NCBI RefSeq assembly: GCF_004010195.1
Contig: NC_057718.1
Location: 86,372,318 to 86,422,898 of the forward strand
DNA length: 50,581 bases
Reading direction: 5' to 3'
DNA from: Chiloscyllium plagiosum
Lineage: Eukaryota
Shown: piece by piece, positions 3,396 through 45,751 of the stretch
How positions within the stretch are numbered: the first letter of the stretch is position 1
Layout of the letters: each line of letters begins with the position of its first letter
Translations under genes and position numbers: made by a program
The notes under the pieces: model-generated
The model's input: only the letters and a program-made list of their open reading frames with translations
What the model was told of the DNA's origin: nothing
Database searches by the model: none

Positions 3396-3477
3396 ATGAA
3401 TCTGGTGGATCTAATGTTTCTGCTCATTGATATTGAACCTATTTTCTATCCCATCCTTGGGGTCACTGGAGTTCTGT
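3396..3477 (+). CDS. Receptor A exon 1 (GPR139-like class A GPCR; N-terminus and first half of TM1)
   Basis: ATG 3396 encodes MNLVDLMFLLIDIEPIFYPILGVTGVL plus 1 nt, followed by donor GTGAGT at 3478; splices in frame (phase 1) to exon 2; homologous to exon 1 of the paralogs. Confidence 0.85.
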
Positions 3478-3974
3478 GTGAGTTATTATAACTGTTGTTG
3501 GTTTGTATGCTCTGATAATGTAACCTGTTGGTGCAGTATTTGTTGCAGCCTCATACATTTACAGTTTTATTTCAAATGCTATCGATCATTAACATTCCGT
3601 GATATTTATCCTTATTTTAGTCATAGTCTCTTCACCAAGTCGGAACATGCAGCTAACTGGGGTTAGTTTGCTCAGATAAATATCTTATTTTATTTACTTT
3701 ACTCTATTTCTGCAACTAAATCCTACATCAGGATGTATTTATTAATTTTCAGAACTGTTCCATTTATTTCCAGGCTTCAGTGAGGATGTGTTGTATTTGG
3801 ATGTTGTTTTGTGCATTGAAGCAAAGTGGGGAGATGCACCTTCACTGCAATGGAACGTGTGCTCTCTCACACCAAAGAATTGCCCTCAGGAATGGACTAT
3901 GTCAGGCCTTTTACACCATCAGAACATCCTGAAGCTCCTCACACCCTGTGAAGGATCACTGTATTTTTAAATAT

Positions 3975-4445
3975 TCTTTATGAGGATGTGACAGGTCACT
4001 GACTGGACCAGTGTTTATTGCCCATCTCTAACCATTCTTGAGAAGGTGGTGTTGAGCTGCCTTCCTGATCTGCTGAGCCTGTGCAGATTATGGAGGAATG
4101 GATTTCCAGGATTGTGACAGAGAAAGAACAGCGAATTAGATCCACGTCGGGATAGTTATGGCTTGGAGGGAAAATTGTAGGTGACACTGTCATCACCCTT
4201 GGTGCTGTCTGAGGGGTCTTGGTGAGTTATTATAATCCATCTGTAGATGGTACACACTGCTGTCCCTCTGCCAATGGAGTCAGTGCAGAAGGAAGTGGAT
4301 GAAGTGCAGATCACACGGGCTGCATCGTCCTGAATGGTGTTGGGATTCTTGAGTGTTGTTGGAGCTGCCCTCATTCGGCGAGTGAACGTTTGTAGCATCC
4401 CCTGATTCCGATTGCATTGCCTTGCCGTTGAGCTCAGACACAAAG
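3975..4445 (-). mobile_element. LINE 3' fragment (second CR1/L2-group family) in the intron of A
   Basis: Minus ORF with RAAPTTLKNPNTIQDDAARVI; same family as 11728-11940 and 14889-15122. Confidence 0.7.
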
Positions 4446-4569
4446 GCAGAAAGCTTGTCATGGGTGTCAGCATCTTCAGTCAAGACAAATGAGATAGACT
4501 TCACTCACAGAGTAAATCAAGGGCAGCCTCTGATACTAGTCCAGAGGCTTGAACATGATCAGTCAGATG

Positions 4570-5200
4570 GTCAGGGTCTTAGCCTCACAGGGGGATGAGG
4601 AGTTGAATGTCTGGCAGCCCACCACCTGCCATGATGTGTTTTTGCCCTATTGAGGGTTGTTTTCCTCGTGGAGTGAGAGAGAGGAAGGGATGAAGGGAGC
4701 TGAAAGTGGATGGGACAGCTGTGACATTTGGTGGAGGTGGGAAGGTGACCCGAGTAAGTGAGGAGACAGTGCCAAGGGCAAGTGGTGTTGGGAGTAAGGG
4801 GGGTGCTGAGAGTGAGTGAGGGAAAATAATGCAGCCAAGCAACAGTGTGGTAGGATTGGACCATTACATGAAGCAGCGGACGGGTCGAGGAATAAAAATG
4901 GCGCATGCTGGCAGAGTGGAAAAGAACCAACTCCCTGCACTGCCACTGACCTCAGTGGCAAACTCAGAAAAGGCTGACATGGATTGCTGTCATGCCTTCC
5001 GCTGTTGGTGTTTGTAGGTGAAGAAGATATCCTGAGTCTGAATCCCCACATCCAGCAGGAGCTCCAGGTAGCTGCCCACAAACTGGAGTACCCATTTCCC
5101 CATGTCTGCCATGTCAGGGGCAAACCAATGGTTCCTTTTCTCAGTCATCATGCAGGTCAGCTCAGGTCTCACAGTGCTTGCCCAGGTGCACTGTGGGATT
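4570..5200. mobile_element. Possible PIF/Harbinger remnant (Myb/SANT-partner fragment on the minus strand)
   Basis: Minus ORF 4585-4842 ends AGGGLPDIQLLIPL, resembling the TGGG motif of Harbinger Myb-like proteins; weak. Confidence 0.35.
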
Positions 5201-5599
5201 TTAAATTTGCCATCAGCACAAGAAATATTAATCATTCTGTGGATATCCAGTGAGTGACACATTTTTCTGGGAAGAGCACATGGTAAGTAAGGGAGAGATT
5301 TGGATATGTGGGATGCCCTAGGATTGGGGTGGGACATTGATAAGGTACATTTGTTTGGTAAGGTTTGGAGGAAAAAGACACAGGGCCACACATCAAGAAT
5401 TCTTGCAAAAACCCTGACATAACTTGCACTTCCCTCAAAATAAGTTTTATAATTTTGCACATTAAGAAACTTACCTGTTGATTCACTCAGACAAAATCCC
5501 TACAAAGTCAGCTGTAAAATTGTAACGTTTTAACTTTTACACTACTTGCACACATTTTCAGCTTACAATTTGGTGTCACCTTCTTTTTTACATTTACAG

Positions 5600-6495
5600 C
5601 TAACCTAATCGCAATCATGACACTGTCACGAGGGAAGTGTGGTCTTTCTAAAGGTGTCACTTGGTACCTGATCGCTATGGCTGTAGCAGATCTGCTGGTT
5701 GTCATTATTCAGGTCATACTGGACAAGATGAATCACTTTTATCTACACATTGTATTCTTCTACAGCCCTCCTGGTTGTAGCATCAGAGACGTCATTGGTT
5801 CCACAGCCGTAAGTAGCTCAGTCTGGCTCACAGTCACCTTCACCTTTGACCGAATGGTGGCTATTTGTTTCCAGAAACTGAAGAGAAAATTCTGCACTCA
5901 GAGAAATGCAGCTGTCATTATCACAACTGTCAGTTTACTGAGTTTATTAAACAAAATCCCACTATATTTTAAGTATGAACCATACTTTTGCAAATTTACC
6001 CATAAATACATGCAGTACCCTGCATGGATAGCTTTTGACTGGGGGGATCGTATTTTAACTCCAGTGCTCCCTTTCTTCCTGATCCTGCTGCTTAATGCTG
6101 TCACCGTCAGACACATCCTTCTGGCTAGTGCAGTCCGCAGGAAGCTGAGAGGACAACAAAACGGGGATAAGCCGAATGATCCAGAAATGAAGAATCGAAG
6201 ACGATCCATCATTTTGCTCTTTGCCATATCGGGCAGTTTTATCCTGTTATGGATCACTCGTGTCATAATTCTCGCGATTCAGCGACTTACTGGGTGGTAT
6301 ACATTAACATCAGATGGTTATTGGGTGGGAGATCTCATAGGAGCAATGCTTCAGTTATCCAGCTCCTGCAACAACACATTTATTTACGCAGTCACACAGA
6401 GCAAGTTCAGAGAGGAGATGCTGAATACTGTGAAATATCCCTTCATCACCATCCAGAATTCCATTAAACGACGGGAACAAAGCTGGTCAATGTAA
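5600..6495 (+). CDS. Receptor A exon 2; intact probable GPR139-like GPCR, 325 aa spliced
   Basis: Pyrimidine tract plus CAG acceptor ending 5599; (S)NLIAI leads into ORF 5617-6495 with MAVADLL (TM2), FTFDRMVAIC (DRY-like), PFFLILLLN (TM5), FILLW (TM6) and NNTFIY (TM7). Confidence 0.9.
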
Positions 6496-6677
6496 GTACA
6501 GTCCGGAAAGGAATATTATTATTCTCCAATCAACTGCTGTTGTATAGGTGCGTGCAAAGAGATTTAAAATGGAGAATCAGATTGTTCCTTAAATTGTGTG
6601 AACAAATGATTTAACACAAGTGTGCTGTGAGGACATCTGCTCCTGCTCAATGAAGATCCATGCCTATCTTGTTCATC

Positions 6678-7570
6678 GAGTCATAGAGCCATGGAGATGT
6701 AGAGCATGGAAGCAAACCTATTGGTCCAACTCGTCCATGCCAACCAGATATCCTAAATTAATCTAATCCCCTTTGCCAGCACTTGGCCCACATTCCTCTA
6801 AACTCTTCCTATTCATTGACCCATCCAGATGCCTTATATAATGTTATAATTGTTATAATGTCTTCACTGTTTCCTCTGGCAACTCATTCCACACACACAC
6901 CATACTCTGTGTGAAAACATTGCTCCTAAAGTCTCTTTTAAATCTTTCCCCTCTCACCTTAAACATATCCCCTTTATCTCTGGACTCCCCCACCCAAGGG
7001 AAAAGACCCTATCCATGTCCTCCATGATTTTACAAACCTCCATCAGGTCACATCTCAGTCTCTGATGTTTCAGGGAAAACAGCCACAGCCTATTCAATCT
7101 CTCCCTGTAGTTCAAACCCTCCAAACCTGGAAACATCTTTGGAAATCCTTTCTGAACCCTTTCAAGTTTCAGGATAGCACGTTAGCAGGGAGACAATGTT
7201 TCAGTATTGCACACAATATTCCAAAAGTGGCCTAACCAATGTCCTGTACAGCAGCAACATGCCCTCCCAACTCCTGTACTCAATGGTCTGACCAATAAAG
7301 GAAAGCATGCGAAGGGAGATAGTTCTTCACTATCCTATCTCCCCGCGACTCCACTTTCAAGGAACTATGAACCTGTACTTCAAGATCTCTTTGTTAATCA
7401 ACTCTCCCCAGGATCTTACCATTAATTGTATATGTCCTACCCTGATTTGCCTATCAAAAATGCAGCACCTCACATTTATCTAAGTTAAACACCATCTGCC
7501 ATTTCTCGGCCCATTGGTCCATCTGATCAAGATCCCATCATATTCTGAGGCAATCTTCTTGGCTCCAATT
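6678..7570 (-). mobile_element. CR1 LINE 3' fragment
   Basis: Minus ORF PGLEGLNYRERLNRLWLFSLKHQRLRCDLMEV; GAGTCATAGAG tail at 6678. Confidence 0.9.
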
Positions 7571-7884
7571 TTGGCATCAATTTTGTTCTTCACACTTGGC
7601 CCATTATTGTTTGGGGGATTTTATGTAAATTTCCACTTCAATTTTTCAATAATGATTCTTGCTCAATATATGTCATGTTGATTTTTGTCTAATTGTACAA
7701 GACCAACTGAGTTTAAGACTGTATTTTTGAATGCCATTAACATGATTTAGAAAGAATAATAATTATAACAGAGCCATCACCTACAACTGGCTCTATCATT
7801 GGCTTCATGACTGGTGAGTGATGGTGTCGTGCAAGACACAATAGTAAGATCTTAGCTCTGATTACAACTTTGGCTCCCCATAAT

Positions 7885-10127
7885 TCTATTTGTCTTAAAA
7901 TAGTTACAGGAAATGATAGGCCTTGTATAAAAGTTAAAGTTCTAAATTGGAGTAAGGCCAACATTGATGGCATAGCACAGGAACTTTCAAAAGCAGATTG
8001 GAGTAGACTATTTGCAGTTAAAGTGACAACTGGCAAGTGGGAGGCTTCCAAAAGTGAGATAACGAGAGTTCAGAGGCAGTATGATCCTGTTAGAATCAAG
8101 GGTAAAGTTGGTAGGAGTAGGGACAATAGATAAACAGAGATATTGAGGCTCTAGTCAAGAATGAGAAGAAGCCATGTATCAGATATAGGCAACTGGGATC
8201 AAGTGAATCTCTTGAAGACAATAAGGGTATAGGGCATTCTTAAGAGTGAAATCTGGAGGGTAAAGTGGGGATACGAGATAGTCTTGGCAGATTAGGTTAA
8301 TGATGAACCAAATAGTTTCTATGATTACATTGAGGGCAAAAGAGCAGCTTAGGTGGGAATATGGCCTCAAAAAGATCAACAAGGTCATCAATCCATGGAA
8401 CCACAGGCAATGGGTGAGATCCTAAATGAATATTTCACTTCAGTATTCACTCTGGAGAAAAGCATGGAAGCTAACAAACTCAGGAAAATAAATATTCACA
8501 TCTTGAAAACAGTCAACATTACAGAAAAGGAGGTACTGGCAAGTCATAGAAGGGATGAAGGTAGCTTAATCTCTGGGTCTTGATCAAGTGTATCGAGGGA
8601 TGAAATTGTGCAGCCCATAGCAGAGATATATGTATCATCTGCAGCCACAGCTGAGGTGCCAGAAGACTGGAGGGGGGCTAATGTTGTGCCTTTATTTAAG
8701 AAAGGCTTCAATGAAGAACCAGAGAACTGAAGACCAGTGAGTCTGATGTCAGTGATGGGTAAGTTGCTGGAGGGGATTCGCAGAGACAGGATCTACACGC
8801 ATTTGGAGAGGGAAAGACTGATTCTGAATAGTCAGCATGGCTTTGTGCATGGGAAATTGCGATTCACTAACTTGATTGAGTGTTACTGTGAGCAAGAAGT
8901 AGATGAAGGCAGAGCAGTAGATGTTGTCTACTGTTGTCTAAAGAGCAGTAGATGTTGGAGGTCTGTAGCAAAGCCTCCAAGAAGGTTCTGTATAGTAGCC
9001 TGGTCAGTATTGTTCGATCAAATGGGATCCAGGGGAAGCTTGTCAGTTGAATACAAAATTGACTTGAAGGTAGGAAACAGAGGGCAGTGGTGGTTGGTTG
9101 TGTTTTGGACTGGAGGCATGTGATCAGCGGAGTTCCAGTGCTAGGCCCACTGTTGTCTGTCTTTTATATAAAAGATTTGATGTGAATTTAGGAGGCATGG
9201 TTAGCATGTTTGTGGATAACTCCAAAATTGATGGTATCATGGAGAGTGAGGAATTTTATCTAAGAGTAGAACAGGATTTGATCAACCTGGCAGTGGGACA
9301 AGAAATGGTAGATCGATTTTAATTTAGATAAATGTAAGGTGTTGCATTGTGGGAAGACAAACAAGAGCAGGACTTACACAGTGAATGGTGGGGCCCTGGG
9401 GATGGGTGTAGAACAGAGAGACCTCGGGGTTCAGGTATGTAGTTCTTTGAAAGTTGTGTCACAGGTAGACAGAGGGGTAAAGAAGGCTCTTGGCACACTT
9501 GTCTTCATTGCTCAGATCGTTATGCAAAGGAATTGGGATGTCATGTTGTAGTTGTATAGGACATTGGTGAGGCCACTTTTGGAGTAATGTGGACTGTTCT
9601 AGTTGCCCTGCTGTAGGAAGGATGTTATTAAGGTGGAGAGGGTGCAGCAAAGATTTATAAGGATCTTCCCAGGACAGGAGGGTTTGAGTTATAAGAAGAG
9701 ACTGCATAAGCTGGGACTTTTTTCACTGGAATAGAAGGAGGTTGAGGGGTGACATTACAGAGGTTTATAAAATCATGAGAGGAACAGATAAAGTGAATAA
9801 CAAAGGTTTTTCCCTAGAGTTGGGGAGTTCAAAACTAGAGGGCGTAGGTTTAAGGTGAGAGGAAAAAGATTTGAGAGGGACCTGAGGGGCAACATTTTCA
9901 TGTAGAGGGTGGTTCGTATGTGGAATGAATTGCCAGAGAAATCGGTGGATGCAGGTACAGGTACAATCTTTAAAAGATATTTGGACAGATACAGGAATAG
10001 GAAAGGTTTAGAGGATAATGGGCCAAAAGCTGGCAAATGGGATTAGTTTAGCTTAGGAGATTTGGTCGGCATGGATGAGTTGGACCGAAGCATCTGTTTC
10101 CATGCTGTATAACTCTATGACTCTATG
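7885..10127 (+). mobile_element. Long decayed CR1 LINE ORF2 with 3' tail
   Basis: Fragments VLNWSKAN, ILNEYFTSVFT, SLMSVMGKLLE...SQHGF, MFVDNSKI and QRDLGVQV; tail CTCTATGACTCTATG. Confidence 0.9.
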
Positions 10128-10129
10128 GG

Positions 10130-10420
10130 CAGTGAGGACAGGTGAGTGGTGGCCAAGCTGGTAATCCTGACTCCAATGGAGGGGGAGGTTCCACAGCTGA
10201 CCAGTCCCAAGACTGGAGAGCCATTGGCTGTCTGCGTAGAGTTCAGCTGAAGGTGGCAGAGTGGGTTTCCTTGCTGCATTTTCCCAGAAACTGAGCTTGT
10301 TTGTTGAGTTTGGGAAGATGTGAGGCTGAATATTAATGAGCCCTGTTGGGCTGCTAACAAGGTGGTGTTTAGCCATCACTAATGCCCATCAATCCCCATC
10401 TCCCTGCTGCCTAGTGAGAG
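10130..10420 (+). mobile_element. Possible Harbinger Myb-partner remnant
   Basis: Translates AKLVILTPMEGEVPQL, similar to VAKLNLMEEEEMLQL in ORF 21564-21830 (-). Confidence 0.3.
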
Positions 10421-15490: not shown

Positions 15491-15527
15491 AAACCTGCAC
15501 AACTCACAAAGTACCTTAAAATTGAGC

Positions 15528-16369
15528 TGAAAAATGTGTTGCTGGAAAAGCGCAGCAGGTCAGGCAGCATCCAAGGAGCAGGAGAATCGACGTTTCGGGC
15601 ATAATCCCTTCTTCAGGAATGAGGAGGGTGTGCCAAGCAGGCTAAGATAAAAGGTAGGGAGGAGGGACTTGGGGGAGGGGCGTTGGGAATGTGATAGGTG
15701 GAAGGAGGTTAAGGTGAGGATGATAGGCCGGAGAGGGGGTGGCGGCGGAGAGGTCAGGAAGAAGATTGCAGGTCAAGAAGGCGGTGCTGAGTCCAAGGGA
15801 TGGGACTGAGATAAGGTGGGGGGAGGGGAAATGAGGAAGGTGGAGAAATCTGCATTCATCCCTTGTGGTTGGAGGGTTCCTAAGCGGAAGATGAGGCGCT
15901 CTTCCTCAGACGTCATTTTGCCATGGTCTGGCGATGGAGGAGGCCAAGGACCTGCATGTCCTTGGCGGAGTGGGAGGGGGAATTGAAGTGTTCAGCCACG
16001 GGGTGGTTAGGTTGGTTGGTCCGGGTGTCCCAGAGGTGTTCCCTGAAACGTTCCGCAAGTAGGTGGCCTGTCTCCCCAGTATAGAGGAGGCCACATCGGA
16101 TGCAGCAGATGCAGTATATGATGTGTGTGGAGGTGCAGGTGAATTTGTGGCGGATATAGAAGGATCCCTTGGGGCCTTGGAGGGAAGTGAGGGGGGGAGG
16201 TGTGGGCGCAAGTTTTGCATTTCTTGCGGTTGCAGGGGAAGGTGCCGGGAGTGGAGATTGGGTTGGTGGGGGGTGTGGACCTGATGAAGGAGTCGCGGAG
16301 AGAGTGGTCTTTCCGTAACGCTGATAGGGGAGGGGAGGGAAATCTATCCTTGGTGGTGGGGTCTGTTTA
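15528..16369 (-). mobile_element. 5'-truncated Penelope-like element with GIY-YIG domain and 15-bp target-site duplication
   Basis: FTCTSTHIIYCICCIRCGLLYTGETGHLLAERFREH...PVAEHFN; ACCTTAAAATTGAGC at 15513-15527 and 16370-16384. Confidence 0.9.
15584..15621 (-). ncRNA. Minimal type I hammerhead ribozyme motif in the Penelope terminal repeat
   Basis: Minus strand CATTC-CTGAAGA-AGGGATTATGCCC-GAAAC-GTC-GATTC: CUGANGA core, stem II (one mismatch), GAAA, palindromic mini stem III, GUC site. Confidence 0.6.
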
Positions 16370-16384
16370 ACCTTAAAATTGAGC

Positions 16385-16690
16385 CAGTGTTGTAATGTAG
16401 CAGTGAAATTGTACACAGTGAGACCTCACATTCAACAATAAGAGAGGTAATCAAACAATCTGCTTTCAGTAATGTTGGTCAGAGAATAAATATTACCCAG
16501 AAGACCATGGATGACTTCACTGCTTGTCCTCAAAGGAGGGCTGTGGGAAATGTTACACCCAATGAGGAGCGTGGACTGGTGTAGTGTTACCAGCTCATCT
16601 GAAGTGGAATTCTGTCAGCCTCAGTCATGTGCTTGATCACATGACCCTGTGATGCAGAGGTGAGAATATCACCACAGAGCCAAGACTTAT
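16385..16690 (-). mobile_element. Old DeuSINE/SacSINE1-like SINE just downstream of the B stop codon
   Basis: Minus strand AATATTTATTCTCTGACCAACATTACTGAAAGCAGATTG resembles the Deu-domain; related to 47500-47740. Confidence 0.45.
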
Positions 16691-18354
16691 AATTAGCATT
16701 GACCTCTGAGGACAGAATTGTCATATTCAGTAGATTCATTTGAATGCTTTATTTCCAATCATTTTTTTAAAACATATTTGACACATTGAATAATTGCAAG
16801 ACATGAATGCATTGCTGCATATCTAAAATTTTCTCTGAATTTAGTCTGAGCCAATGCATAAAGCAGTTGAAACATATCTCCACTACAGGTTGCGATTAGT
16901 AAGTGATTAGTATACTGATCTGGCTCGTAATGCATATGTGTAATTCTAGAAATCAGGATAAACACAGTATATGGCATCCACAGCACGATGAAAGTGCCAG
17001 AAAGAGTGAACAGTAAAGTGATGGATTTCCTTCGGCTCGGCATCTCTGGATCATCACTGTTCTGGTAGTTGTGTTGACCTTGCAGTGCTCTGCGGGTTTG
17101 ATTCGCCATCACAATGTGTCCGACAGTCAGTGCGTTGAGCAGTAAAATGAGAAAGAATGGCAATAGTGGGTTTGAAATTGCATCATGCCAGTCAAAACTG
17201 ATTCATCCTGGCAAAATAAAACAGTCTGGTTTGAAATGAGCGCCCCAATTGTTAATGATATAGGTTGGCTCATAGTACACGGGGATGTTTTTGAAACAGA
17301 ACACTACACACATAGTCACTATCACCACAGCTGCAGTTTCCTCCCTGCAATACTTTGCTCTCAACCTCTGGCAACAAATGAGGACAAAATGATCGACAGT
17401 GAAAGCGACCGTGAGCCAAACAGAGCAGTCATCAGCTGTGTAGTTGATCACCTCATTGATGCTCCTTATTGAGGTGAAGTGTAGAAATGAAAATGGGAAA
17501 TAGCAGTAAAGCATGTAGTAGATTATCACATTGGAAATAATGAACAGGAGATCAACTGTCGTCATACCCACCAAATAAAGAGTGATCCCTTTGGACAGAC
17601 CACAGCCTCCACAAAATAGAAGGACAATTGTCAGGAGGTTAGCTACAAAGAAAAGAGCAGAATCTCCAGATTAATAACACAACATTGTTTGGAAATTATG
17701 GCACAAAACCAGGTAATTTAGTCCAATATGTCTCAGTTGAGATTCACACTGCAAATATGTTTCCTCCCACTGACTTCATCTTACAATATTGAGATATTAT
17801 TTCTTTCAGCCTCATGTAGTTACTGAGATTTCTCATCAGGCAAGCTCACAAATGTGTAGAAATATTGCACAGATTGGAAGGAAGCAAATCTATTTCTCAA
17901 ACTAGAATCCCTTTACAGAGACGGATTGAGTGGGTGTACCCCACCACCACTTTGCCTTATGTCAGTCTATAATTAAACAGAAGGGTGGGTGGGGCTGGGA
18001 GGGGCTGCCTCGTTTGAATGTTGACTAACTTACATACACTGAAGCTCATGGTGAGCTCAGTTGACCACAATTGTGTGGGATCCATTCTCCTATCCAGAGG
18101 TTCCACAGACAATAACAGAATGGGAAGGGGGGTTTCCAGCAGTGTTATGTCAGGGGCACTGAGACGGATAAAAATCCAACAAAGTCTTTATAAGTGGAGC
18201 GGTTGGATGTAGTCAGTGATTTTCCTCATGAAGGTGGAAGTATTGAGCTGTTTTTTATTTTGACAATTTTGTGATATTCGGTGGGGACAATAAAAACATG
18301 ACGGAGGAGAGACAAGGCTATAGGCCTTGATATAGGGCTGTGATTAAGTCCAAG

Positions 18355-19750
18355 GAAAAAGTGAGGACTGCAGATGCTGGAAATCAGAGTCGCGAGTGTT
18401 GTGCTGGAAAAGCACAGAGGGTCAGGCCGCATCCGAGGAGCAGGAGAATCGATGTTTCGGGCATAAACTCTTCATCAGGAATGAGGCTTATGACCCAAGG
18501 GATTGGATAGATGAATGTGAGGGGGTGGTGGGCTGAGGGGAAGCTGAGAGTACGATAGGTAGATGGAGGTGGGGGTAATGGTGATAGGTTGGAGAGGAGG
18601 GCAGAGCAGATAGGTGGGAAGGAAGATGGGCATGTAGGACAGGTCATGGGTGCAGTGCCAGGTTGGAAGGTTGGAATTGGGGTAAGGTGGGGAGAGAGGA
18701 AATGAGGAAACTGGTGAAATCCACGTTGNNNNNNNNNNNNNNNNNNNNNNNNNNNNNNNNNNNNNNNNNNNNNNNNNNNNNNNNNNNNNNNNNNNNNNNN
18801 NNNNNNNNNNNNNNNNNNNNNNNNNNNNNNNNNNNNNNNNNNNNNNNNNNNNNNNNNNNNNNNNNNNNNNNNNNNNNNNNNNNNNNNNNNNNNNNNNNNN
18901 NNNGGGGATGGGTGCGTAGATCTGACGAGGGAGCCATGGAGGGAATGGTATCCCCAGAACACTTATAGAGGTGGGGAGGGAAACACATATCTGGTGGCAG
19001 TGTCCGTTTGTAGGTGGCGGAATTGGCGGAGGATGATGTGATGTATACGGAGGTTGGTGGGGTGGGAGGTGAGAATCGGGAGATCTGTCCATGTTGTGTT
19101 GGGAGGGGTGAAGTTCAAGGGTGGAGGTGTGGGAAGTGGAGGAGATGTGCTGAAGGGCATCATTGACGCATGGGAAGGGAAATTGCGATCTTGGAAAAAG
19201 GAGGCCATCTGGGATTTTCTAAGGTGGAATTGGTCATCCTGAGAACAGATGCAATGGATGCCCCACCACCCATGGCTGAACATTTTAACGCCCCCCCACC
19301 GACTCCACCAGGGACATGCAGATCCTGGGCCTTCTCCATCACCAAACCCTTACCACCTGAAGCCTGGAGGAAGAACGCCTCATAGTCCACCTTGGGACCC
19401 TGCAACCACATGGGATCAATGTGGATTTCACCAGTTTCCTCATTTCCACTTCCCCCACCTTATCCCAGTCCCAAGCCTCCAACTTGACACCGCCCTCACG
19501 ATCGTCTTTTCCATCTATCCTCTCCACCCTGCTCTCCAACCTATCACCATTACCCCCACCTTCATCTACCTTTCACATTCTCAGTTACGTTCCCCTCAAA
19601 CCCACCCCCCTCCTATTTATCTCTCAGCTCTCCACCCAAACCCCCCAACCCGGCCTACAAGCCTCATTCCTGATGAAGGGCTTAAGCCTGAAATTTCGAT
19701 TCGCCTGCCCCTCAGATGCTGCCTGACCTGTTGTGCACCACACTCTCAAT
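18355..19750. mobile_element. Penelope-like element with an inverted (two 3' ends) structure in the intron of B; contains N gap 18729-18903
   Basis: Left part is minus (ASFFQDRNFP...HPTNLRIHHIILRQFRHLQTD); right part from about 19258 is plus (PMAEHFN...). Termini are reverse complements, each with a CTGATGA...GAAA motif. Confidence 0.85.
19665..19702 (+). ncRNA. Hammerhead-like motif (Penelope terminus)
   Basis: CATTC-CTGATGA-AGGGCTTAAGCCT-GAAA-TTTC-GATTC; stem III degenerate. Confidence 0.5.
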
Positions 19751-22340: not shown

Positions 22341-22664
22341 TTCCTCATGTCCTCATGGAACTAAACTAAAATTCACAAATTACAGCATGAGCTGTTTCTT
22401 GTAGGAACACCTGAAACTGGATCCAGCATGAGGAGAGAAAGAGGGAGAGTTTATACACTGAGAGATATATCAGGGGAAAGAACAGAGTGAAAGTGGGATT
22501 GAAAAGATAACACAACCTGCTTCAGCTTCTTACCAGGAACTCCGAAAATTGCGAGGAAATGGTAGTAAGTGAAAGCTATCTGTTCAATTGTTGGTCATTC
22601 CATTTTCAGAGAGAGGGCGATATCAATTGTCGTCCACAGATCTGAATAATTGGACATTCATCTG

Positions 22665-22740: not shown

Positions 22741-22923
22741 GGTACAGTTAATTTTAATGGATATTACACAATACAATCTTCACCTACACTGGAAGATTGA
22801 AGGAGAACAATTGGGCCAGGTCCATCTCAGGGCTCCTTGCTCACTCTCTTAGTGCTCTCTACACGGATGCTCACACCATCCCTGCCTTGCCTTGACTTTC
22901 TCACTTTGTCCCCTCACCCACAC

Positions 22924-30151: not shown

Positions 30152-31441
30152 ATGGAGCTGATTGATCTATCAATAATTGAGCAGACAACTTTCATTTACT
30201 ATCATTTTTGTGGAACATTTGGAGTTCCTGATAAGAAACTGAAGCTGGGTATTTTGCATTTTGTCTAAAAATTCAAACTTTAATTTTGTTCTTGCTCTTG
30301 ATGCATCAATCAAACATAGAATGTGAAATGATCTCTCTTAATGCTGCATCAAGTTTAGGTCTTCCTTAATGTAGAACACTTCCTACTTTATGCAATGATG
30401 GCCTTCTTGCAGAAAACATCTTGGGATCGAGAAGATGACAGATTTCAGCACTGGTTTGTAAAAAAATGTCCCTTAGTTTAGAGGAACATGTGTTTGCAGC
30501 TCTTTTTCCCTTTGTGTTTTTCTTGTGTCATGTTTGGATCTGTTATGACTCATTTAGAGGTGCTGATTGTTGTGGTTAGTCAACACCGAAAATCATCTAT
30601 CTATCCTCTGGCTGCCAGGATTGTGGAATGAAACAACGTAGAGGATGTTTGCTCTTTGTCTCATTGTCATGGTGCCATATATTCTGGTTTGAGAGAAGAA
30701 CTTTTCTCTTCATGATCAGTACAGTATTATCAAACCAGCACAGACAGTGTGAGCTTGTCACATTGGGAAATTAATAAGAAAGAAGTGTGAGGAAAAGGAT
30801 AAATTATAATGGTGAGATGAAGTTAGATGAAGGAAGTGTATATGAAGCATGAATAGTAACATAAAACTATTGGAATGAATGGTGTCATTTTTACTGCAAT
30901 TTCCAAATTAGACTTTGCATTTCATTTGGAGATTTGACTCATTTCTTTGTAGCTAACTTCCTGACAATTGTCCTTCTGGTCCAAGGAAGCTGTGGTCTAT
31001 GCAAAGGTGGGCATGACAACAGTGGACTTGCTGGTCCTTATTTTCAATGTAATAATTTATTACATACTTTATTACTATTTCCCATTTTCACTTTACTTGG
31101 TGGGCATGACAACAGTGGACTTGCTGGTCCTTATTTTCAATGTAATAATTTATTACATACTTTATTACTATTTCCCATTTTCACTTTTACACTACACTTC
31201 CATAGTGAGCATCAATGAGGTGATCAACTATGTGCTTGTTGACTGCTCTGTTTGGCTGACAGTCGCTTTCACTGTCGATCGCTTTGTCCTCATTTGTTGT
31301 CAAAAGCTCAGAGAGAGGTATTGCAGGGAGCAGACTGCAGCTGTGATTATAACAACCCTGTGTGTTGTATCATGCATCAAAAATATTCCGCTGTACTTTG
31401 CTTTTGAACCTGGCTATATAATTGACAATGTAGAATGGACT
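30152..31441 (+). pseudogene. Receptor C: GPR139-like GPCR pseudogene (exon 1 30152-30230, exon 2 from 30953, cut by Penelope at 31442)
   Basis: Close paralog of D; donor GT changed to AT at 30231; about 17-nt frameshifting deletion near 31006; 93-bp tandem duplication; homology stops at ...IIDNVEWT. Confidence 0.9.
31006..31191 (+). repeat. 93-bp tandem duplication inside C exon 2
   Basis: GGTGGGCATGACAACAGTGG... starts at both 31006 and 31099. Confidence 0.95.
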
Positions 31442-32351
31442 CTGAAAATATGTTGCTGGAAAAGCGCAGCAGGTCAGGCAGCATCCAAGGAGCAGGAGAA
31501 TCGACATTTCAGGCATGAGCCCTTCCACAGGAATGAGGAAAGTGTGCCAAGCAGGCTAAAATAAAAGGTAGGGAGGAGGGACTTGGGGGAGGGGTGTTGG
31601 AAATGCGATAGGTGGAAGGAGGTTAAGGTGAGGATGATAAGCAGGNNNNNNNNNNNNNNNNNNNNNNNNNNNNNNNNNNNNNNNNNNNNNNNNNNNNNNN
31701 NNNNNNNNNNNNNNNNNNNNNNNNNNNNNNNNNNNNNNNNNNNNNNNNNNNNNNNNNNNNNNNNNNNNNNNNNNNNNNNNNNNNNNNNNNNNNNNNNNNN
31801 NNNNNNNNNNNNNNNNNNNNNNNNNNNNNNNNNNNNNNNNNNNNNNNNNNNNNNNNNNNNNNNNNNNNNNNNNNNNNNNNNNNNNNNNNNNNNNNNNNNN
31901 NNNNNNNNNNNNNNNGGAGGGGAGGGAAATATATCCCTGGTGGTGGGGTCTGTTTGGAGGTGGCGGAAATGACGACGGATGATACGATGTATATGGAGGT
32001 TGGTGGGGTGGTAGGTGAGGACTAGTGGGGTTCTGTCCTGGGGCTCAAGGGCAGAGGAGCGGGAAGTGGAGGAGATGCAGTGGAGAGCATCATCGACCAC
32101 GTCTGGGGGGAACTTGCGGTCTTTGAAGAAAGAGCCCATCTGGGTTGTTCGGTATTGGAACTGGTCCTCCTGGGAGCAGATGCGGCAGAGACTAAGGAAT
32201 TGGGAATATTGGATGGCGTTTTTACAGGGGGCAGGGTGGGAGGAGGTGTAGTCTAGGTAGCTGTGGGAGTCAGTCGGTTTATAGTAAATGTCTGTGTTGA
32301 TTCAGACGCCCGAGTTAGAAATGGAGAGGTCTAGGAAGGGGAGGGAGGAGT
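31442..32351 (-). mobile_element. Penelope-like element inserted in C (N gap 31646-31915 inside, 32352-32851 adjacent)
   Basis: Terminus CTGAAAATATGTTGCTGGAAAAGCGCAGC as at 15527; ORF GSFFKDRKFPPDVV...PLVLTYHPTNLHIHRIIRRHFRHLQTDP. Confidence 0.88.
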
Positions 32352-33254: not shown

Positions 33255-36200
33255 GTAATGCGTCAGCAACACCAACTGGAAAAGAACAACTTTTATTGTT
33301 CAACACCAAATTAGAGCCACTATTTGTGGTGTATATAGGCTAGTCCCAGCCTGGGACAGACAGACATCCCTGGGTCTGATTTTGATTTTATATCCAGGAA
33401 TGATATCACACACAATTGGATGTTTTCTCTCCACCACGATGTGAAGGGTTTTTTTTTCCATCTATTACTCAACTGAGCCTGCTTTATATATATTTTATGA
33501 TAAGAGTCTGTTTTTTTTTTCCTCATTAACCCCTGTTTAGAGATGTTATTCCGCACCTGAGGAGCAAGTGAATTTTGAACCCAGGCTGCCTGGCTCAGAG
33601 GTAGGGACACTATCAATAGCCCACAGAGCCCTGAATCCTACCAGAAGCTGTGACTGGATTTGAACACCTGCCTCTAAAGAATGAGCCTGGGTAACCAAGC
33701 CAATGGCATTATCCCGAGGCCACCACTTCCCTTCATTGCTTTATAATGGGCTCGGGTGATGATTTCTAGCGCGAGGCCATTGCCTGTTACCAAGAGAATT
33801 CATTCTCTACAAGCTCTACAGGGAGATTAATTCTTGTTTCCCATGTGCCTTAAAGACATTCTCACATACCTCCACCTCCAAGTCTGAGATTTCCCCCCTT
33901 GGTCCTGTGACGACGGGGCATCCTGTGTTGTTTTGCTCATGACCCCATTCCTGTTGCTTTCCAGGTTTGATCGAGAGGTGTATAATGAACAAGCTCCAGG
34001 TGGAGGTGGGTGTGGCCCATTTTCAATTGAGAAAATATGTGACTCCAAGCCAGACTTTCATACAAGTCTCTGATACATGGCATTGGGTATCTGACTAAGC
34101 AGGAATCTCCGTTGATTGTCAACTCGTAATCGCCTCAGAGTCGACATGTTTTACAACTCGGATTACTGGCTTGGGCCCATTCAAAACACTGGGCATATGA
34201 TACCCAGTTCCTCTCGACGTTCTGGTTCAGCCTCCACTCTGCCTCATGAGGGACCGACCACGCCTTGAAGTAATTAGGTTGGGCTTCTGCGTCTAGATAG
34301 ATCTTGACCCATGAACCTTTTATCTTCTCTTGGAATATTTTGGGATACCTCCCAATAACTCGATATAGATCACTGGTAGCCATCTCAAAGTTCTGTTGCC
34401 AGTGCAGGCAGATTTTATGTAACCAGTTCCTTCCCAAACGATTGAGACCTCGCCCTTGTACTACCAGTGAGGGGAGTCTAACTGTCTGTTGCATCCCTAT
34501 ATAACTGGGTTGCAGTGGTCCCAGTAATACATAAGGGATCCTTAGTATAGTAACCAATCTAGCCTTGTGTCTTTCAAGGTTAAAGGCAAGATGTCCCATT
34601 GAAGTTTCCTTTATTTATTCCCCAAAAATTGTTACATCAGTATCTGTATCTCCCTCCATGTCTAACGGCGTAGCCATTTATTTGACCTTTTTTAATTAAT
34701 TGGCACCATTTTGGGAGCGGTGATGTGATTTAGCGATATCAGTTCCTCATCCTTGGGCTGTTTTATTTACAAAACCCCATTTGGAGGTGACTTCACCCCT
34801 CAGCCTGGGCGGTACACGTTGTATTTCGGTAGCATTGTCTGGGGTGAACTCTGTGACTACAAGTGTGGCATAGCCTTTCCTGCTCCTCACTGTATTATGG
34901 AGAAACTTCCCACCCAGTTCTGGAACCTTGCAGCCTCCGCTTCCAAACCCCCTTCTTTGGAAACAAACAGGAGCCATGAGTATTACCCACTGGGGACTTT
35001 ACTCTGCAATACGGGCCTTTCCCAAGGTTGAGGACAGTACTGTCTATGGACCCCTGAACCACATGAGCTCCTTTTCCCACATTTTGGGGTAAAAGTCCAG
35101 TTCTATGGCTTTCCTGAGGTACAGATCTGGTTCAGTCAGTAGCTTCCTTTGGGTTGTAGCATTATTAATTCCACAAACTAAGTGACCCCTTATTATTTCC
35201 CAACGTGTGGCTCATACTCACAGAGTTCTGGAAATTTCCACAGTCTCATTTAGAATTCAGGAACTGGTTCCCCAGGAAGTCTATTTCCTGTGTTAAACCT
35301 GTAATGCGACAGTATAACAGATGGGTTGGGGTCAGAGTGGTCCACGACCATATCTATCAGTTCCTCAAAGGATTCTGACTCCGGGGCTGCTGAGGGTGGG
35401 GGGGGGGGGTGAAACACTTCATGATGCTGTTAGAAGGGACTCCACAAGCAGTCAGGAGAATGACGTTTTGTTGGTGATCTACCCCGTTTGCCTGAGATAA
35501 ATATCTCATTATTTCAGCATTCTGGGACAATCCTCCACATTTGAATCAGAATGTTCCAGATTCCCAAACAGCAGAATGTTTAACATTTCCCTGACACGGT
35601 CTCACTGGGTTTGTTGAAAGGCAAGGCTGTCTGAAACTTGCCTTTCCTCTCAATGCCAATACAATAACTCAGGAAGCCTGACTGGAAAGGAGCAATGTTT
35701 GTCTTCCCAAACCAATGAGACCTGCCCCTTCTGCCACCAGCAAGGGGAGTCTGACTGTCTGTTGAACCCCTCTCATGTAACTGCGGTTACAGTGATCCCA
35801 ATAATATAATGGCTCCTCAATGCAGTGATCAATGCAGCTCTGTGTCTCATAGGCTTAAAGACAAGATGTCTGATTGCTGTTTCCTAAAGGTTTACTCCCC
35901 AAGAGATAGAGTAGTCCAGTGACGAACTCCATGTCTAAGGGCCTGGCCATTTACTTGGCATTTTATTTCAATTGGGGTGATGTTGGGAGCAGTGATGTGA
36001 TTCAGCTGTATCAGTTCCTCATCCTTGGGTGATTTATTTACAAAACCCCGTCTTGAGGTGACTCCGCATCTCTGGCCTGGGCGGTGTGTGCTATATGTTT
36101 TGGGTAGCATTGTCTGGGGTGAACTCTGTGACTACAAGTGTGGCATAGCCTTTCCTGCTCCTCACTGTATTATGGAGAAAATTCCCACCCAGTTCTGGAA

Positions 36201-37200
36201 CCTTACAGCCTCCGATTCCAAACCCCCTTCCTTGGGAACAAACAAGAGTCATGAGTATTACCCACTGGGGACTTGACTCTGCAGTAAGGACCTTGCCTAA
36301 GGATGAGGAGGGTACCATCTATGGACCCCTGAAGCTCCTGAGCCCCCATTCCACATTATTGGAGGAAATGTCCAGCTCTTTGGCTTTCCTGAGGTTTAGA
36401 TCTGGTTCAGTTGTAATATTATTAATTCCACAAACTTAATGATCCCTTAATATTTCCCAAAGCTCTGGCTAATACTCACAGTGTTCTGGAAATTTCCACA
36501 GTCTCATCAAGAATTCAGTAACTGGTTTCCCAGGAAGTCTATTTCCTGTGTTAAACCTGTAATGCGACAGTATAACAGATGGGTTGGGGTCAGAGTGATC
36601 CACGACCATATCTATCAGTTCCTCAAAGGATTCTGACCCTGGGTCTGCTGGGAAGGGGGTGGGGTGGGGGGGTGAAACTCTTCATGATGCTGTTAGAAGG
36701 GACTCCACAAGCAGTCAGGAGAATGACGTTTTGTTGGTGATCTACCCCGTTTGCCTGAGATAAATATCTCATTATTTCAGCATTCTGGGACAATCCTCCA
36801 CATTTGAATCAGAATGTTCCAGATTCCCAAACAGCAGAATGTTTAACATTTCCCTGACACGGTCTCACTGGGTTTGTTGAAAGGCAAGGCTGTCTGAAAC
36901 TTGCCTTTCCTCTCAATGCCAATACAATAACTCAGGAAGCCTGACTGGAAAGGAGCAATGTTTGTGGTTGAAAACCAAAATACAGCGATTGCTCATGGCA
37001 CACAGAGGCTAGTCCCAGCCCGGGACACACAGTTCTGCAGATCATCACCGGGTCTTCATTTTTTTTTCTTTTTATTTAACTTTCTTTTAATCAAATTGTC
37101 TAGAGATGTTACTACACCCCTCTGGAGCAGGTGGGACCTGAACCTCCCGGTCCAGAGATAGGGATATCATCACTCTGCCACAAGAGAGCCTCGGGTCTGC
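33255..37200 (-). mobile_element. Decayed, internally deleted Gypsy LTR retrotransposon with a duplicated gag-protease segment
   Basis: LPSLVVQGRGLNRLGRNWL..., YFKAWSVP and RYPMPCIRDLYESL...FSQL (protease-RT); LTR-like similarity between 33270-33375 and 36940-37050; PPT-like AGGGGGGAAA near 33890-33899. Confidence 0.75.
34460..36965. repeat. About 1.26-kb tandem duplication (34460-35702 and 35735-36965)
   Basis: Directly visible collinear copies; 35417-35702 and 36680-36965 appear identical. Confidence 0.9.
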
Positions 37201-37320
37201 TATATCTTTGATTTTTTAACCAATTTTTCTCATCAACCTTTGCAGAGATGTTATTGCATACCCCTGGAGCAAGTGGAACTTGAACCAAGAACTAGGAATG
37301 CTACCACTGTGCCACAAGGG

Positions 37321-38135
37321 AGCCTCCACCACTTCCTCTGGCAGCTTATTCCATACACGTACCACCCTCTGTGTGAAACGTTGCCCCTTATGACTCTTTT
37401 ATATCTTTCTTTCCCCTCTCACCCTAAACCCTCTAGTTCTGGACTCCCCGACCCCAGGGAAAAGACTTTGTCTATTTACCCTATCCATGTCCCTCATAAT
37501 TTTGTAAAGCTCTATAACGCCACCACTAAGCCTCCAATGCTCCAGGGAAAACAGCCTCAGCCTGTTCAGCCTCTGCCAATAGCTCAAATCCTCCAACCCT
37601 GGCAACATCCTTGTAAGTCTTTTCTGAACCCTTTCAGGTTTCACAACATCTTTCTGGTAGGAAGGAGACCAGAATTGCACGCAATATTCCAACAGTGGCC
37701 TAACCAATGTCCTGTACAGCCGCAACATGACCTCCCTACTACTGTACTCAATACCCTGACCAAAAAAGGAAAGCATACCAAACGTCTTCTTCACTATCGT
37801 ACCTACCCGAGAGTCAAATTTCAAGGAGTATTGAACCTGCACTCCAATGTCTCTTTGTTCAGCAACACTCCCTAGGACTTTACCATTAAGTGTGTAAGTC
37901 CTGCTAAGATTTGCTTTCCCTCACATTTATCTGAATTAAACTCCGTCTGCCATTTCTTAGCCCATTGGCCCACCTGGTCAAGATCCTGTTGTAATCTGAG
38001 GTAACCTTCTTCGCTGTCCACTACATCTTCAATTTTGGTTATCATCTGCAAACGTACTAACTATACCTCTTATGCTCGCATCCAAATCATTTCTGTAAAT
38101 GATGAAAAGTAAAGGACCCAGCACCAATCCTTGTA
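37321..38135 (-). mobile_element. CR1 LINE fragment
   Basis: ORF 37399-37842 LYRTLVRPLLEYCVQFWSPSY. Confidence 0.92.

Positions 38136-38780: not shown

Positions 38781-38811
<31 letters not shown>
38728..38811. repeat. Compound (CT)n/(CTCGCT)n microsatellite
   Basis: Seen directly. Confidence 0.95.
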
Positions 38812-42400: not shown

Positions 42401-42754
42401 CCTGATCACACATGACTGACTTCAGAGGAACAGACTCTGGAACAGGCTGCACTTTGCCCTACTGCCTTCAAAAATAACCCAATGGCTAAAATGTTTTAAT
42501 TTTCATACACCTGATCCCTACGGAGCAATCCTTTTTTCCTTGTTTTTCTTAAATATGTGTGTTTTTATGTGTGTTTCGGGAGTTACTGAGAGGGATAAGC
42601 ATTTATCCTTCTGTCTGATCAGGTGTGGTTGTTAGCCAATGTTTTCATGTTTATTAAATACGTTTATTTTGATGATAAACCCATAATTGTGTTTATTATG
42701 ATACTTGATTGATGGATTTTTTTTGTTTAAAACTGTTTGATTTGATTCAATTTC

Positions 42755-43410
42755 AATTATTAGAATCACATGTACCTAGGTACAGTGAAATGTTTTGTAT
42801 GTGCATTCAGTATGGGCAGATCAATCTATAAAAAGTGTTTTAGGTTAGAACAGGTGAAGAAAACAATGCACAAAGAGCAAGATCAACATTCAATTTAAAA
42901 TTAAGAAGTCTATTCCAAACAGTGGGAAAGAAGCTGTTCTTGAGTCTGTCGATACATGTGTTTCAGACGTTTTTTACTGTTTGCCTAACAGGGGTGATTA
43001 CAACAGGGGTGAGAGGGATTTGATGATGTTGGCTGCCTTCCCAAGGCAGTGAGAAATATAGATATGGTCAATAGATGGAAGGTTGGTTTGTGTGATAGAC
43101 TGGGCTGTGTTCATAACCTCTTAGTTTCTTACAGTCCAGGGCAGAGCAGTTGTCATAACAAGCCGTGTGCATCCAGATAGAATGCTTTCTGTGGTACATC
43201 TGTAAAAATTGGTAAGAGTCTTTATGAATGTGCTGAATTTCCTCAGTCTCCTCAGGAAGTAGAGGCATTGTTGAGCTTTCTTCACTGTTACATGCATGTG
43301 AGTGGATCTTTGTTGGTGATCATCACACCATGGAACTTGATGCCCTTGACCATCTCCACCTCAGCACATTGATGTGGACAGGAACATGCGCTCTGCCTTG
43401 CTTCCTGAAA
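42755..43410 (-). mobile_element. Rex1/Babar-like LINE 3' fragment
   Basis: Minus translation KKAQQCLYFLRRLRKF...LTNFYRCTTESILSGC; TACYDNCSALDCKKL. Confidence 0.75.
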
Positions 43411-43884
43411 TGTGGCTACTTAGTCATTTTGGCAAATGGAAAAAGTCTCCCTATTTCATATTCTGACCTGTGGAATGAAGGGACGAGAAAATAGTACACG
43501 CCTTCAGCCTCAGTCATAACAAACGTTAAACAACAATTTGTTTCCCGAAATTCAATCTTTTCCTCACGGAGGATTTTTGTCGTGAATCTTCAAATTTGAG
43601 ATGAACAAAGCAAAGCTTATGTTTGGTGTGAATTTCTCTGAATATTGTCATGAACACAGGACCTATCAGCAACATCTATTCCATTCAAACCTAAAATTCC
43701 TAATTTAATCAAGTAATATATCCCAAGGACAGTGCAATTTTAAACTATACTTTGCTAAAAGTTGAAAATTGTTAATTCAATTGATAAATATTCATTTAAT
43801 AATGATCTGGATATTTTCAGTTGGAATTGATACAATTCACCTGTATAAATGTATTGCCTAATCTCTGGCAACATTAATTATACA

Positions 43885-43964
43885 TGTTTGTTCAAGGAGC
43901 TTGAACTAATTCTGCTCCCTCTGTAAATGAAGAGAATCACAAGCCGGATACGTGTTTTATATAA
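43885..43964 (+). promoter_or_regulatory. Putative promoter of D: TGTTTGTT 43885, AACTAATT 43904, TATATAA 43958
   Basis: Motifs and spacing conserved among paralogs; TATA starts 86 nt before the ATG. Confidence 0.65.
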
Positions 43965-44043
43965 GAAGCTGATATGAATGAAGAATGTCTGGTGCTTCAC
44001 ATCTGTTGTCACTGATTGGTTTCATCTTCTAGGTCCTTCCGAG

Positions 44044-44122
44044 ATGGAGCTGATGGATCTGTCAATAATTGAGCAGACAACTTTCATTTACTATCATTTT
44101 CTTGGAATATTTGGAGTTCCTG
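44044..44122 (+). CDS. Receptor D exon 1 (GPR139-like GPCR)
   Basis: GAGATGG start context; MELMDLSIIEQTTFIYYHFLGIFGVP plus G; donor GTAAGA at 44123. Confidence 0.9.
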
Positions 44123-44846
44123 GTAAGAAACTGAAGTTGGGCGTTTTGTATTTTTTCTTCAAATTCTGACTTTAATTCTGTTCTCGCTCTTGATGCATCG
44201 ATCAAACATAAAACATCAAATTCTCTCTCTTAATGCCGCATCAAGTTTAGGTCTTCCTTCAATGTAGACAACTTCCTACAATATGCAATGGTGACTTTCT
44301 TTCAGAAAACATCTTGCAATCCAAAAAATGAGAGATTTAAAGATTGATTTGGGGAAAATTTCCCATGTATTTTCAGATCAAAATTTCTCCTTAACTGGTT
44401 GATTCCCTTGCCTCATGTTTGGATCTGTGTTAGACTCATTTGGAAGTGTTGATTGCTGTGATCAGTTCATGAATAAAATCATCCTTCTATCCTCTGGCTG
44501 CCAGGACTGTGGAATGTGGCAACGTAGAGGGTGTTTGTTCTTGTCTCATTATCATGCTGCTATATATTCTAGTTTGAGAGAGAGAGAAAGACTTACCTCC
44601 TCATGATCTATACAGTATTATCAAACGACCACAGACTCTGGGAGGTGTCAATTATGGGAATCTCAATAAAGAGGACAAAGGAATAAAATGATATTTTGAT
44701 ATGGTGAGCTGAAATAAGGTGGGAGGAAGTCCATATGGAGCATGAACAGTAACATAAAACTATTGGAATGAATGGTGTCATTTTTTTCTGTAATTCGCAG
44801 ATTCTGCTCTGCAATTAATTTGGAGATTTGACTCTTGTTTTTGTAG

Positions 44847-45751
44847 CTAACGTCCTGACAATTGTCCTTCTGATCAGAGGAGGCTGTGGTCTGTCCAAAG
44901 GGATCACTCTTTACTTGGTGGGTATGACGATAGTGGACTTGCTGGTCCTTATTTTCAATGTGATAATCTATTACATATTTTGTTACTATTTCCCATTTTC
45001 ACTTTTACACTACACTTCCATAGCGAGCATCAATGAGGTGATCAACTATGTGCTTGTTGACTGCTCTGTCTGGCTGACAGTCGCTTTCACTGTCGATCGC
45101 TTTGTCCTCATTTGTTGTCAAAAGCTCAGAGAGAGGTATTGCAGGGAGAAGACTGCGGCTGTGATTATAACAACCCTGTGTGTTGTATCGTTCATCAAAA
45201 ATATTCCACTGTACTTTGCTTTTGAACCTGGCTATATAATTGACGATGTGGAGTGGACTGTTGATTTCAAGCCAGCATATTTTACATGGCCAGGATGGAT
45301 CACCTTTGACTGGATTGATATAATTTTAAACCCATTGTTACCATATTTTCTCATTTTACTGCTCAATGCACTGACTGTTCGTCACATTGTGATGGCTAAT
45401 CGAACCCGCAGAGCACTGCAAGGTCAACGCAACACCCAGAGCAGCGACGATCCAGAGATGCAGAGCCGAAGGAAATCCATCATTTTACTGTTCGCCATTT
45501 CTGGTACTTTCATCGTGCTGTGGATGCCTTCTGTTGTATTCTTCCTCATTTCCAGAATTACAGACAGACATTATGAACCAGATGAATACACAAACCCATT
45601 CCTTATCGCAGACTTCACAGCAGATATGTTCCAACTGCTGAGCTCCTGTACAAACACGTGTATTTATGCATTTGCTCAGACTAAATTCAGGGAGAAGTTG
45701 GGAAATGCAATAAGGTATCCATTTATTTCAATCATTAAACATGTCAAATGA
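44847..45751 (+). CDS. Receptor D exon 2; intact probable GPR139-like GPCR, 327 aa spliced
   Basis: TTTTTGTAG acceptor; uninterrupted (A)NVLT...MTIVDLL...FTVDRFVLIC...PYFLILLLN...FIVLWMP...TNTCIY...KFRE; 724-bp phase-1 intron. Confidence 0.92.

Follow-up and report, generated by a model that had tools for sequence, protein, structure and literature searches.

A large receptor family of cartilaginous fishes named after GPR139: four paralogs in a Chiloscyllium plagiosum window and a candidate repertoire of chemical sensors

We analysed a stretch of 50,581 nucleotides from the genome of the shark Chiloscyllium plagiosum (contig NC_057718.1, positions 86,372,318 to 86,422,898 of the forward strand), which is referred to below as the window, together with the family of class A G-protein-coupled receptors (GPCRs) to which its genes belong and which is automatically named after GPR139. 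Four GPCR paralogs, A to D, were found in the window at the positions described earlier (Table 1); A and D are intact, and B and C are broken. Each paralog consists of a short exon 1 and a long exon 2, and the position of the phase-1 intron, directly before the Asn of the first transmembrane helix (TM1), is identical among them. The exon coordinates and the lesions confirmed what had been proposed in a sequence-only reading of this DNA, i.e., four two-exon paralogs within 42 kb and in mixed orientation, two of them intact and two dead. Paralog A had also been described as clearly more diverged than the others, which is in agreement with its amino-acid identity of 45-49% to B, C and D, compared to 72% for B-D, 77% for B-C and 93% for C-D. 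Because of this last value and because the upstream DNA of C and D can be aligned over 1.6 kb, C is considered to be a recent copy of D; what remains of its exon 2, which is cut at 31441 by repeat-derived DNA, has 95% nucleotide identity to D. In B, the deletion in TM7 removed the residues SSCTNTCI.

Table 1. Exons and promoter elements of the four receptor paralogs, numbered from the first nucleotide of the window
Feature	Position	Strand	Remarks
Gene A exon 1	3396..3477	+	27 codons plus 1 nt; donor GTGAGT
Gene A exon 2	5600..6495	+	TM1-TM7 and C-tail; intact, 325 aa; short extracellular loop 2 (ECL2); DRM and NNTFIY
Pseudogene B exon 1	22534..22603	-	TGA at codon 3
Pseudogene B exon 2	16759..17642	-	in-frame TGA at 17205; DRF to DHF; 24-nt TM7 deletion
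Pseudogene C exon 1	30152..30230	+	donor GT to AT
Pseudogene C exon 2	30953..31441	+	17-nt deletion; 93-nt tandem duplication (31006-31187); 3' half lost after TM4
Gene D exon 1	44044..44122	+	donor GTAAGA
Gene D exon 2	44847..45751	+	intact, 327 aa; DRF and NTCIY; without both TM3-ECL2 disulfide cysteines
A promoter element	3233..3260	+	TGTTTAC then GAACTAATT, spacing as in D
B promoter TGTTTGTTCA	starts 22740	-	upstream of exon 1
D promoter	43885..43965	+	TGTTTGTTCA, GAACTAATT and TATATAA

Both intact proteins matched Pfam 7tm_1 (E 4e-18 for A and 1e-15 for D, above the cut-off for both) and carry the class A marks D2.50, DRx, W6.48, N7.49 and Y7.53; additionally, D matched Pfam Srw with an E-value of 4e-9, which is above the cut-off of that model. 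A crude hydropathy scan for the seven-helix fold yielded 5 and 6 segments above 1.5. The non-canonical motifs that had been pointed out are indeed present, but the loss of Pro from NPxxY is not distinctive, as it is common to GPR139 (NFFLY) and to the sister genes of the family. Similarly, very short N-termini are a feature of A-D and of most of the named homologs, but not of a large young subfamily that has long, repeat-bearing first exons. The close relatives of D share 82% (catshark) and 62% (chimaera) of its residues. The TM3 cysteine is missing in D and its 17 closest named relatives, as is the ECL2 cysteine where these stretches were compared, and the chimaera relative of D retains both; the TM3 cysteine is likewise missing in GPR139/142. 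An atlas search with D returned only automatically named chordate clusters. A and D are members of the older, slower branches of the family.

The four copies are real, but the cluster to which they had been assigned does not end with the window, since at least 14 copies are present in about 400 kb of contig C9. The window in itself is a small and unremarkable part of the family, and it is in the family that the interest lies. Searching the genome with exact codon patterns gave 2,104 matches for TM3, 1,327 for exon 1 plus its donor and 1,304 for TM7, and the reversed control gave 0 in each case. On loci that had been obtained with an independent protein search, the TM3 pattern recovered 48/63 and the TM7 pattern 30/62, and after correction for sensitivity both patterns led alike to an estimate of about 2,700 main exons in this genome. 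A lineage-specific repertoire had been suspected from the window, and the genome-wide count is far above what had been guessed. Moreover, a protein search of the same genome revealed 7,897 candidates with D and 7,832 with A as the query; all of the 131 and 132 candidates that were scored were strong matches, and most of them were without an internal stop. In the first 100 TM3 matches, all on contigs C1-C8 and judged by the main exon, this exon was intact in 38, broken in 52 and located in gaps in 10, which supports the birth-and-death evolution that had been proposed. This sample is biased, as 66 of the 100 copies come from one young subfamily. Extrapolation from the 38/100 gives an estimate of roughly 800-1,000 intact receptors, a number that duplicates carried by unplaced contigs may inflate.

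The copies of the young subfamily have a nucleotide identity of about 86-90% and flanks in common. The first exons assigned to it (L172-L201) contain in-frame repeats of 42 nt in varying numbers of up to about 11, each starting with ATG and encoding roughly MDQNLRTLDWNVPT, ahead of a variable segment, so that the predicted N-termini range from about 44 to 186 aa. These repeat-bearing first exons would pair with the young exon-2 subfamily. An atlas search with the N-terminal repeat gave no match above 0.8 and none that was credible. In the first 11 Mb of contig C8, the exon-1 matches outnumber the TM3 matches about 3:1, which may be due to long introns, to gaps in the assembly or to first exons that stand alone.

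Such numbers could also result from a mostly neutral amplification, in which a few functional receptors reside on duplication-prone DNA and most of the intact copies are simply young and undecayed. The share of the young subfamily in the sample, the common flanks of its copies, 38 of the 57 gap-free ones of which are broken, and the possible inflation of the counts are consistent with this explanation, as are the good fit of a hypermutable-neutral model and the fact that no sense RNA was seen, both presented below. However, many deep subfamilies (about 50% identity) are still open, the helices and intracellular loops of the paralogs have an omega (ratio of nonsynonymous to synonymous rates) of 0.3-0.4, and promoter motifs are kept amid dissimilar upstream DNA. 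We regard neutral amplification as an improbable explanation.

Among public proteins, 1,169 matches passed the threshold of 1e-10, and the best 120 were inspected. The 118 of these that were named all came from sharks, rays, skates or chimaera, in accordance with the chondrichthyan expansion that had been suggested, and 115 were titled probable or putative GPCR 139; no bony-vertebrate member was present among these best 120 of the 1,169 matches. In the tree placement, 126 of 150 representatives were placed, all of them outside the family. Spread by a mobile element, either by retroposition or as a fixed transposon unit, was considered and is unsupported, as the intron acceptor is kept, the flanks are variable and there are no common ends in 18/20 loci. 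The copies would rather spread as DNA duplications that carry the intron and the flanks.

The genome has a canonical GPR139 of its own, which was found as one pattern match (C21); one pattern for GPR142 found no ortholog in this genome, which is no evidence of its loss. Three further single-copy relatives, X (C26; L162), Y (L160) and Z (L161), have one clear copy each and are automatically named "probable GPR139". Among the matches listed, X is present in sharks, fish, amphibians and reptiles and Y in sharks, fish, coelacanth and lungfish, with no mammal or bird for either. Rinne et al. (2019; PMC6504862) described three unnamed receptor sets beside GPR139/142, including GPR210A and GPR210B; X, Y and Z, matched to them by taxon pattern alone, are probably GPR210A, GPR210B and the third set. 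Two records of X are titled as TMEM183A isoforms, which suggests that X is linked to TMEM183A.

Trees were built from 44 rows, including lamprey and amphioxus relatives, using IQ-TREE with the LG+G4 and LG+C20 models, and the approximately unbiased (AU) test was performed under LG+G4. The family is a clade (100/100) whose sister is X (95/93, both models), followed by Y and Z and then by amphioxus, with GPR139/142 apart; the lamprey and amphioxus genes were placed outside the family-plus-X grouping. A union of the family with GPR139/142 was rejected (AU p 0.0056), and a grouping of X, Y and Z without the family was still tolerated (p 0.13). Because the stem of the family is long (0.94-1.19), X is likely, although less than certain, to be its exact sister. 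The wider clade, which comprises GPR139/142, X/Y/Z, amphioxus and the family, has a common intron and is apart from the protostome outgroups; the node that unites GPR139/142 with the rest has moderate support (96/84, 94/83), with one long outgroup row inside. These trees show the family as descending from the lineage of the single-copy orphan X rather than from GPR139/142, and the place within the GPR139/142 group that the sequence-only reading had assumed was thus not supported. Because of this placement and because the genome has its own GPR139 elsewhere, the database name GPR139 is, judged by sequence, wrong for the family and amounts to a nearest-human-hit label.

The pocket with which GPR139 binds Trp and Phe is formed by E3.32, F3.33, H5.43, W6.48, R6.51 and N7.38 (PMC7318219). 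At these six positions A has G, S, D, W, R and A and D has N, Y, D, W, S and D, which means that 2/6 of the published residues are retained in A and 1/6 in D, and amino acids as ligands, one of the options that had been raised, lose ground. This bears on a role of the family in gut or metabolic nutrient sensing, in which enteroendocrine or tuft-like cells would detect amino acids or digestion peptides, as the analogy to GPR139/142 in the sequence-only reading would imply. In favour of such a role are the best match to a solved structure, human GPR139 (E 6e-9), and the intron position that is common to GPR139 and the family; moreover, the element TGTTTGTTC presumably resembles endodermal FoxA sites. 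However, the Trp/Phe pocket is not conserved, and it is not evident why about 1,000 nutrient sensors would be needed, which leaves this explanation with little probability.

Across 158 family proteins, D3.49, W6.48, N7.49, Y7.53 and P5.50 were invariant, and five pocket positions were variable at 2.3-3.1 bits. In the young subfamily, 19 intact copies gave a tree-based omega of 0.41 in the helices, 0.33 in the intracellular parts and 1.27 in the extracellular loops, and for 46 close pairs of 12 genes, which are non-independent, the loop value was 1.75 (confidence interval 1.21-2.66). The comparison of the M1a and M2a models, which were fitted with our own code, gave a likelihood-ratio statistic of 345-349, with 5.6% of the sites of this subfamily at an omega of 7.8. 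Fifteen of the 16 fast codons are located in extracellular loops, and the remaining one at the top of TM5. At codon positions 1-3 they underwent 6.3, 7.1 and 4.4 parsimony changes per site, and four-fold sites 1.6-2.0. A regional hypermutation is disfavoured, since four-fold sites are barely faster in the loops than elsewhere (2.0 vs 1.6 changes at 9 vs 69 sites). The codon comparisons thus show purifying selection on the helices and intracellular loops of the young subfamily (omega 0.3-0.4) and rapid amino-acid change in its extracellular loops. Together with the variable pocket positions, these loop-focused codons support the suggestion that the family diversified on its ligand side. Because the loops rapidly exchange bulky residues (W, Y and R), the ligands may be larger than single amino acids and peptide-like, in agreement with the proximity of the wider clade to peptide receptors (PMC11004728). 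A rapid change of the surface would also be expected of receptors for reproductive or social recognition on gametes, cloaca or skin that evolve under sexual selection, and the kinship of the family to invertebrate peptide receptors such as the MIP receptors (PMC11004728) would fit them as well, but we give this role only a slim chance.

The promoter set consisted of 33 regions from diverse subfamilies, i.e., 23 of the 25 with an exon 1 found in 40 upstream regions plus 10 others, with the young subfamily left out. De novo, the motifs TGTTTGTTCA near -160, TCAGTGGAGA near -100 and CTGGAACTAA were obtained with log-likelihood ratios of 85, 73 and 53, compared to about 45 for shuffles. The Forkhead-like motif, as which we take TGTTTAC, occurred in 17/33 promoters versus 3%, and an O/E-like site, when one mismatch was allowed, was found between -140 and -60 in 10/33 promoters versus 41/1,230 intron windows (p 2e-7; shuffled mean 0.6). 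Additionally, TAATTR-N3-CASTGGAG had 755 genome matches compared to 151 for the control, several of them directly upstream of first exons of the family. The promoters of A and D have Forkhead-like and AACTAATT elements in common, and the motifs are kept across upstream DNA that is otherwise dissimilar. These comparisons show a proximal layout of putative Forkhead, degenerate O/E and TATA elements that is common to the family. The combination of O/E, homeodomain and TATA elements is a mark of mouse odorant receptor (OR) promoters (PMC3247239), for which a composite pattern was published (PMC11643329). An OR-like control of the family promoters is thereby hinted at, modestly and with no proof.

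The same promoters, together with the loops, could point to an immune or barrier repertoire, in which the receptors on leukocytes or epithelia would sense microbial or host peptides in the manner of FPR or MRGPR and be driven by an arms race. EBF and Forkhead factors act in B cells and in endoderm too, and B-cell genes typically carry paired Forkhead and EBF-type sites. The extreme loop-focused change (the omega class of 7.8) resembles host-pathogen arms races, and the fast turnover, with 52/100 copies broken, and the variable-length N-terminal repeats of the young subfamily would also suit this explanation. However, the proximal layout of TATA, homeodomain-like and O/E-like elements resembles that of OR promoters, and the thousands of copies are at the scale of smell-receptor families. 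An immune or barrier function is unlikely in our opinion, but it deserves to be kept in view.

The explanation that we propose is that each intact gene would encode a small receptor that keeps its G-protein face fixed but has a ligand surface of its own, with all copies coupled to one G-protein pathway. Duplication at the DNA level would make the copies, selection would retune their loops and about half of the copies would die; expression would take place in olfactory or other chemosensory cells. With middling confidence, we consider the family to be a ligand-diversified repertoire of chemical sensors, in whichever organ, probably for peptide-sized cues. The more specific idea that sharks and rays have in it a fifth major olfactory receptor family, with about 1,000 intact genes and an independent origin from an orphan peptide-receptor lineage, is possible, but we put it forward tentatively.

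A number of observations weigh against this proposal. With regard to selection, a hypermutable-neutral class (6.5-fold faster) nearly equals M2a (lnL -6225.1 vs -6222.4), and because this null is only 2.7 log units worse, positive selection falls short of formal proof. The region-wide tree-based omega of the loops is borderline above 1, and the four intact copies of the D subfamily, i.e., those of 30 loci (L001-L030) that passed a strict filter, had an omega of 0.32 and no positive class. Furthermore, the limits of the loop and helix regions as well as the promoter windows were chosen after viewing the data. In the promoters, perfect O/E sites were present in 0/33, the mouse composite pattern showed no enrichment over shuffles (17/33 vs 17.5), that of the homeodomain motif was weak (18 vs 13.3), and the O/E-like sites of A and D all have two mismatches. 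The spacing in the shark TAATTR-N3-CASTGGAG is 1 bp below that of the mouse Sfaktiria composite (PMC5608512). The strongest motif, the Forkhead-like one, is unmentioned in the available sections of the paper on mouse OR promoters (PMC3247239), and TGTTTAC also precedes the single-copy X. As for expression, a look-up of data sets containing D listed none of RNA, and a single-cell run without a tissue label (X9), of which about 2% was covered, had 0/118 reads that matched D at 99% identity. A further run, X10, yielded no matching reads, and the Logan contigs X1, X2 and X11 carry no information on strand or tissue. On a neighbouring paralog (L004, contig C9, about 29 kb downstream of the window), 245 reads of this run were placed, with no splice joint or sense transcript among them. 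In the catshark, nearly all olfactory neurons are positive for Go and TRPC2 and V2Rs are robustly expressed (PMC10116579), and a catshark brain-and-nose library had no GPCR in its top 50 genes (PMC11979771).

The reads on the L004 paralog include 55 with loose poly-T ends at L004:1917-1920, with AATAAA about 15 nt away on the minus strand. Expression of this paralog was rejected as their source, as the poly-T ends are antisense and the AATAAA is on the minus strand; a polyadenylated antisense RNA ends within its exon 2 (L004:1917-1940).

A comparison with known systems shows where the family stands. GPR139/142, orphan class A GPCRs that are activated by Trp/Phe and by peptides, resemble it in being its best PDB match, in having two exons (PMC7318219 for GPR139) that are separated by a phase-1 intron at the same position, ahead of the TM1 Asn, and in NxxxY without Pro, D/E-R-Y/F and W6.48. 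However, their identity to D is 18-22%, they form a separate clade (100/100), they are single-copy compared to thousands, and their pocket is not conserved in the family. X, Y and Z are the nearest relatives in the tree and share the Cys motif of intracellular loop 1 and the intron with the family, but have one clear copy each in the genome and about 21-30% identity to D. The ORs, TAARs, V1Rs and V2Rs are likewise large, clustered birth-and-death families with a conserved signalling side, a variable ligand side and O/E-like and TATA promoter elements. The shark family differs from them as another GPCR lineage (7tm_1 with weak Srw/Srx) with a coding intron, fast sites in the loops rather than in the pocket alone and a dominant Forkhead-like motif. 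The nematode Srw receptors, which D matches in Pfam, likewise expanded as chemoreceptors from this neighbourhood of peptide receptors, but independently and in another phylum.

The remaining DNA of the window is rich in repeats. Degenerate repeat copies are present at 15913-16425, 18400-19750 and 31445-32300, of which one weakly matches GIY-YIG (E 3e-4) and one adjoins the truncation point of C; we assume that these repeats are Penelope-like elements. Another interspersed repeat family is represented by multiple fragments (67-87% identity) at 51-641, 6680-10130, 22920-24380, 28260-29120 and 37320-38130; they presumably resemble the reverse-transcriptase ends of long interspersed nuclear elements, and no Pfam match was obtained with the two pieces tested. 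Additionally, a segment of about 1.3 kb is directly duplicated at 34430-36978 (86% identity overall, 99% in part), and an array of about 87 TTAGA pentamers, which follows a 104-nt duplication, was observed at 49947-50534.

The olfactory repertoires of sharks comprise 20-62 genes (PMC10869828), and cartilaginous fishes have the smallest ones among vertebrates despite their large noses (PMC10869828, PMC10116579); a paucity of GPCRs in these fishes was also stated (PMC8455134). In literature searches aimed at the family, whose coverage did not extend to subscription journals, no published description of it was found, and GPR139 is unmentioned in the shark genome papers that were checked by term look-up. 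With about 800-1,000 intact receptors under one automatic name, the GPCR counts of cartilaginous fishes would change, whatever the tissue in which the receptors act, and the paradox of shark smell becomes testable with existing RNA-seq. If the immune explanation is true, the family would rank with the largest sets of innate receptors that are known from any vertebrate. If the olfactory one is true, it would exceed all known shark smell receptors more than 10-fold, and the view of a sense of smell that is based on 20-62 receptors would be overturned.

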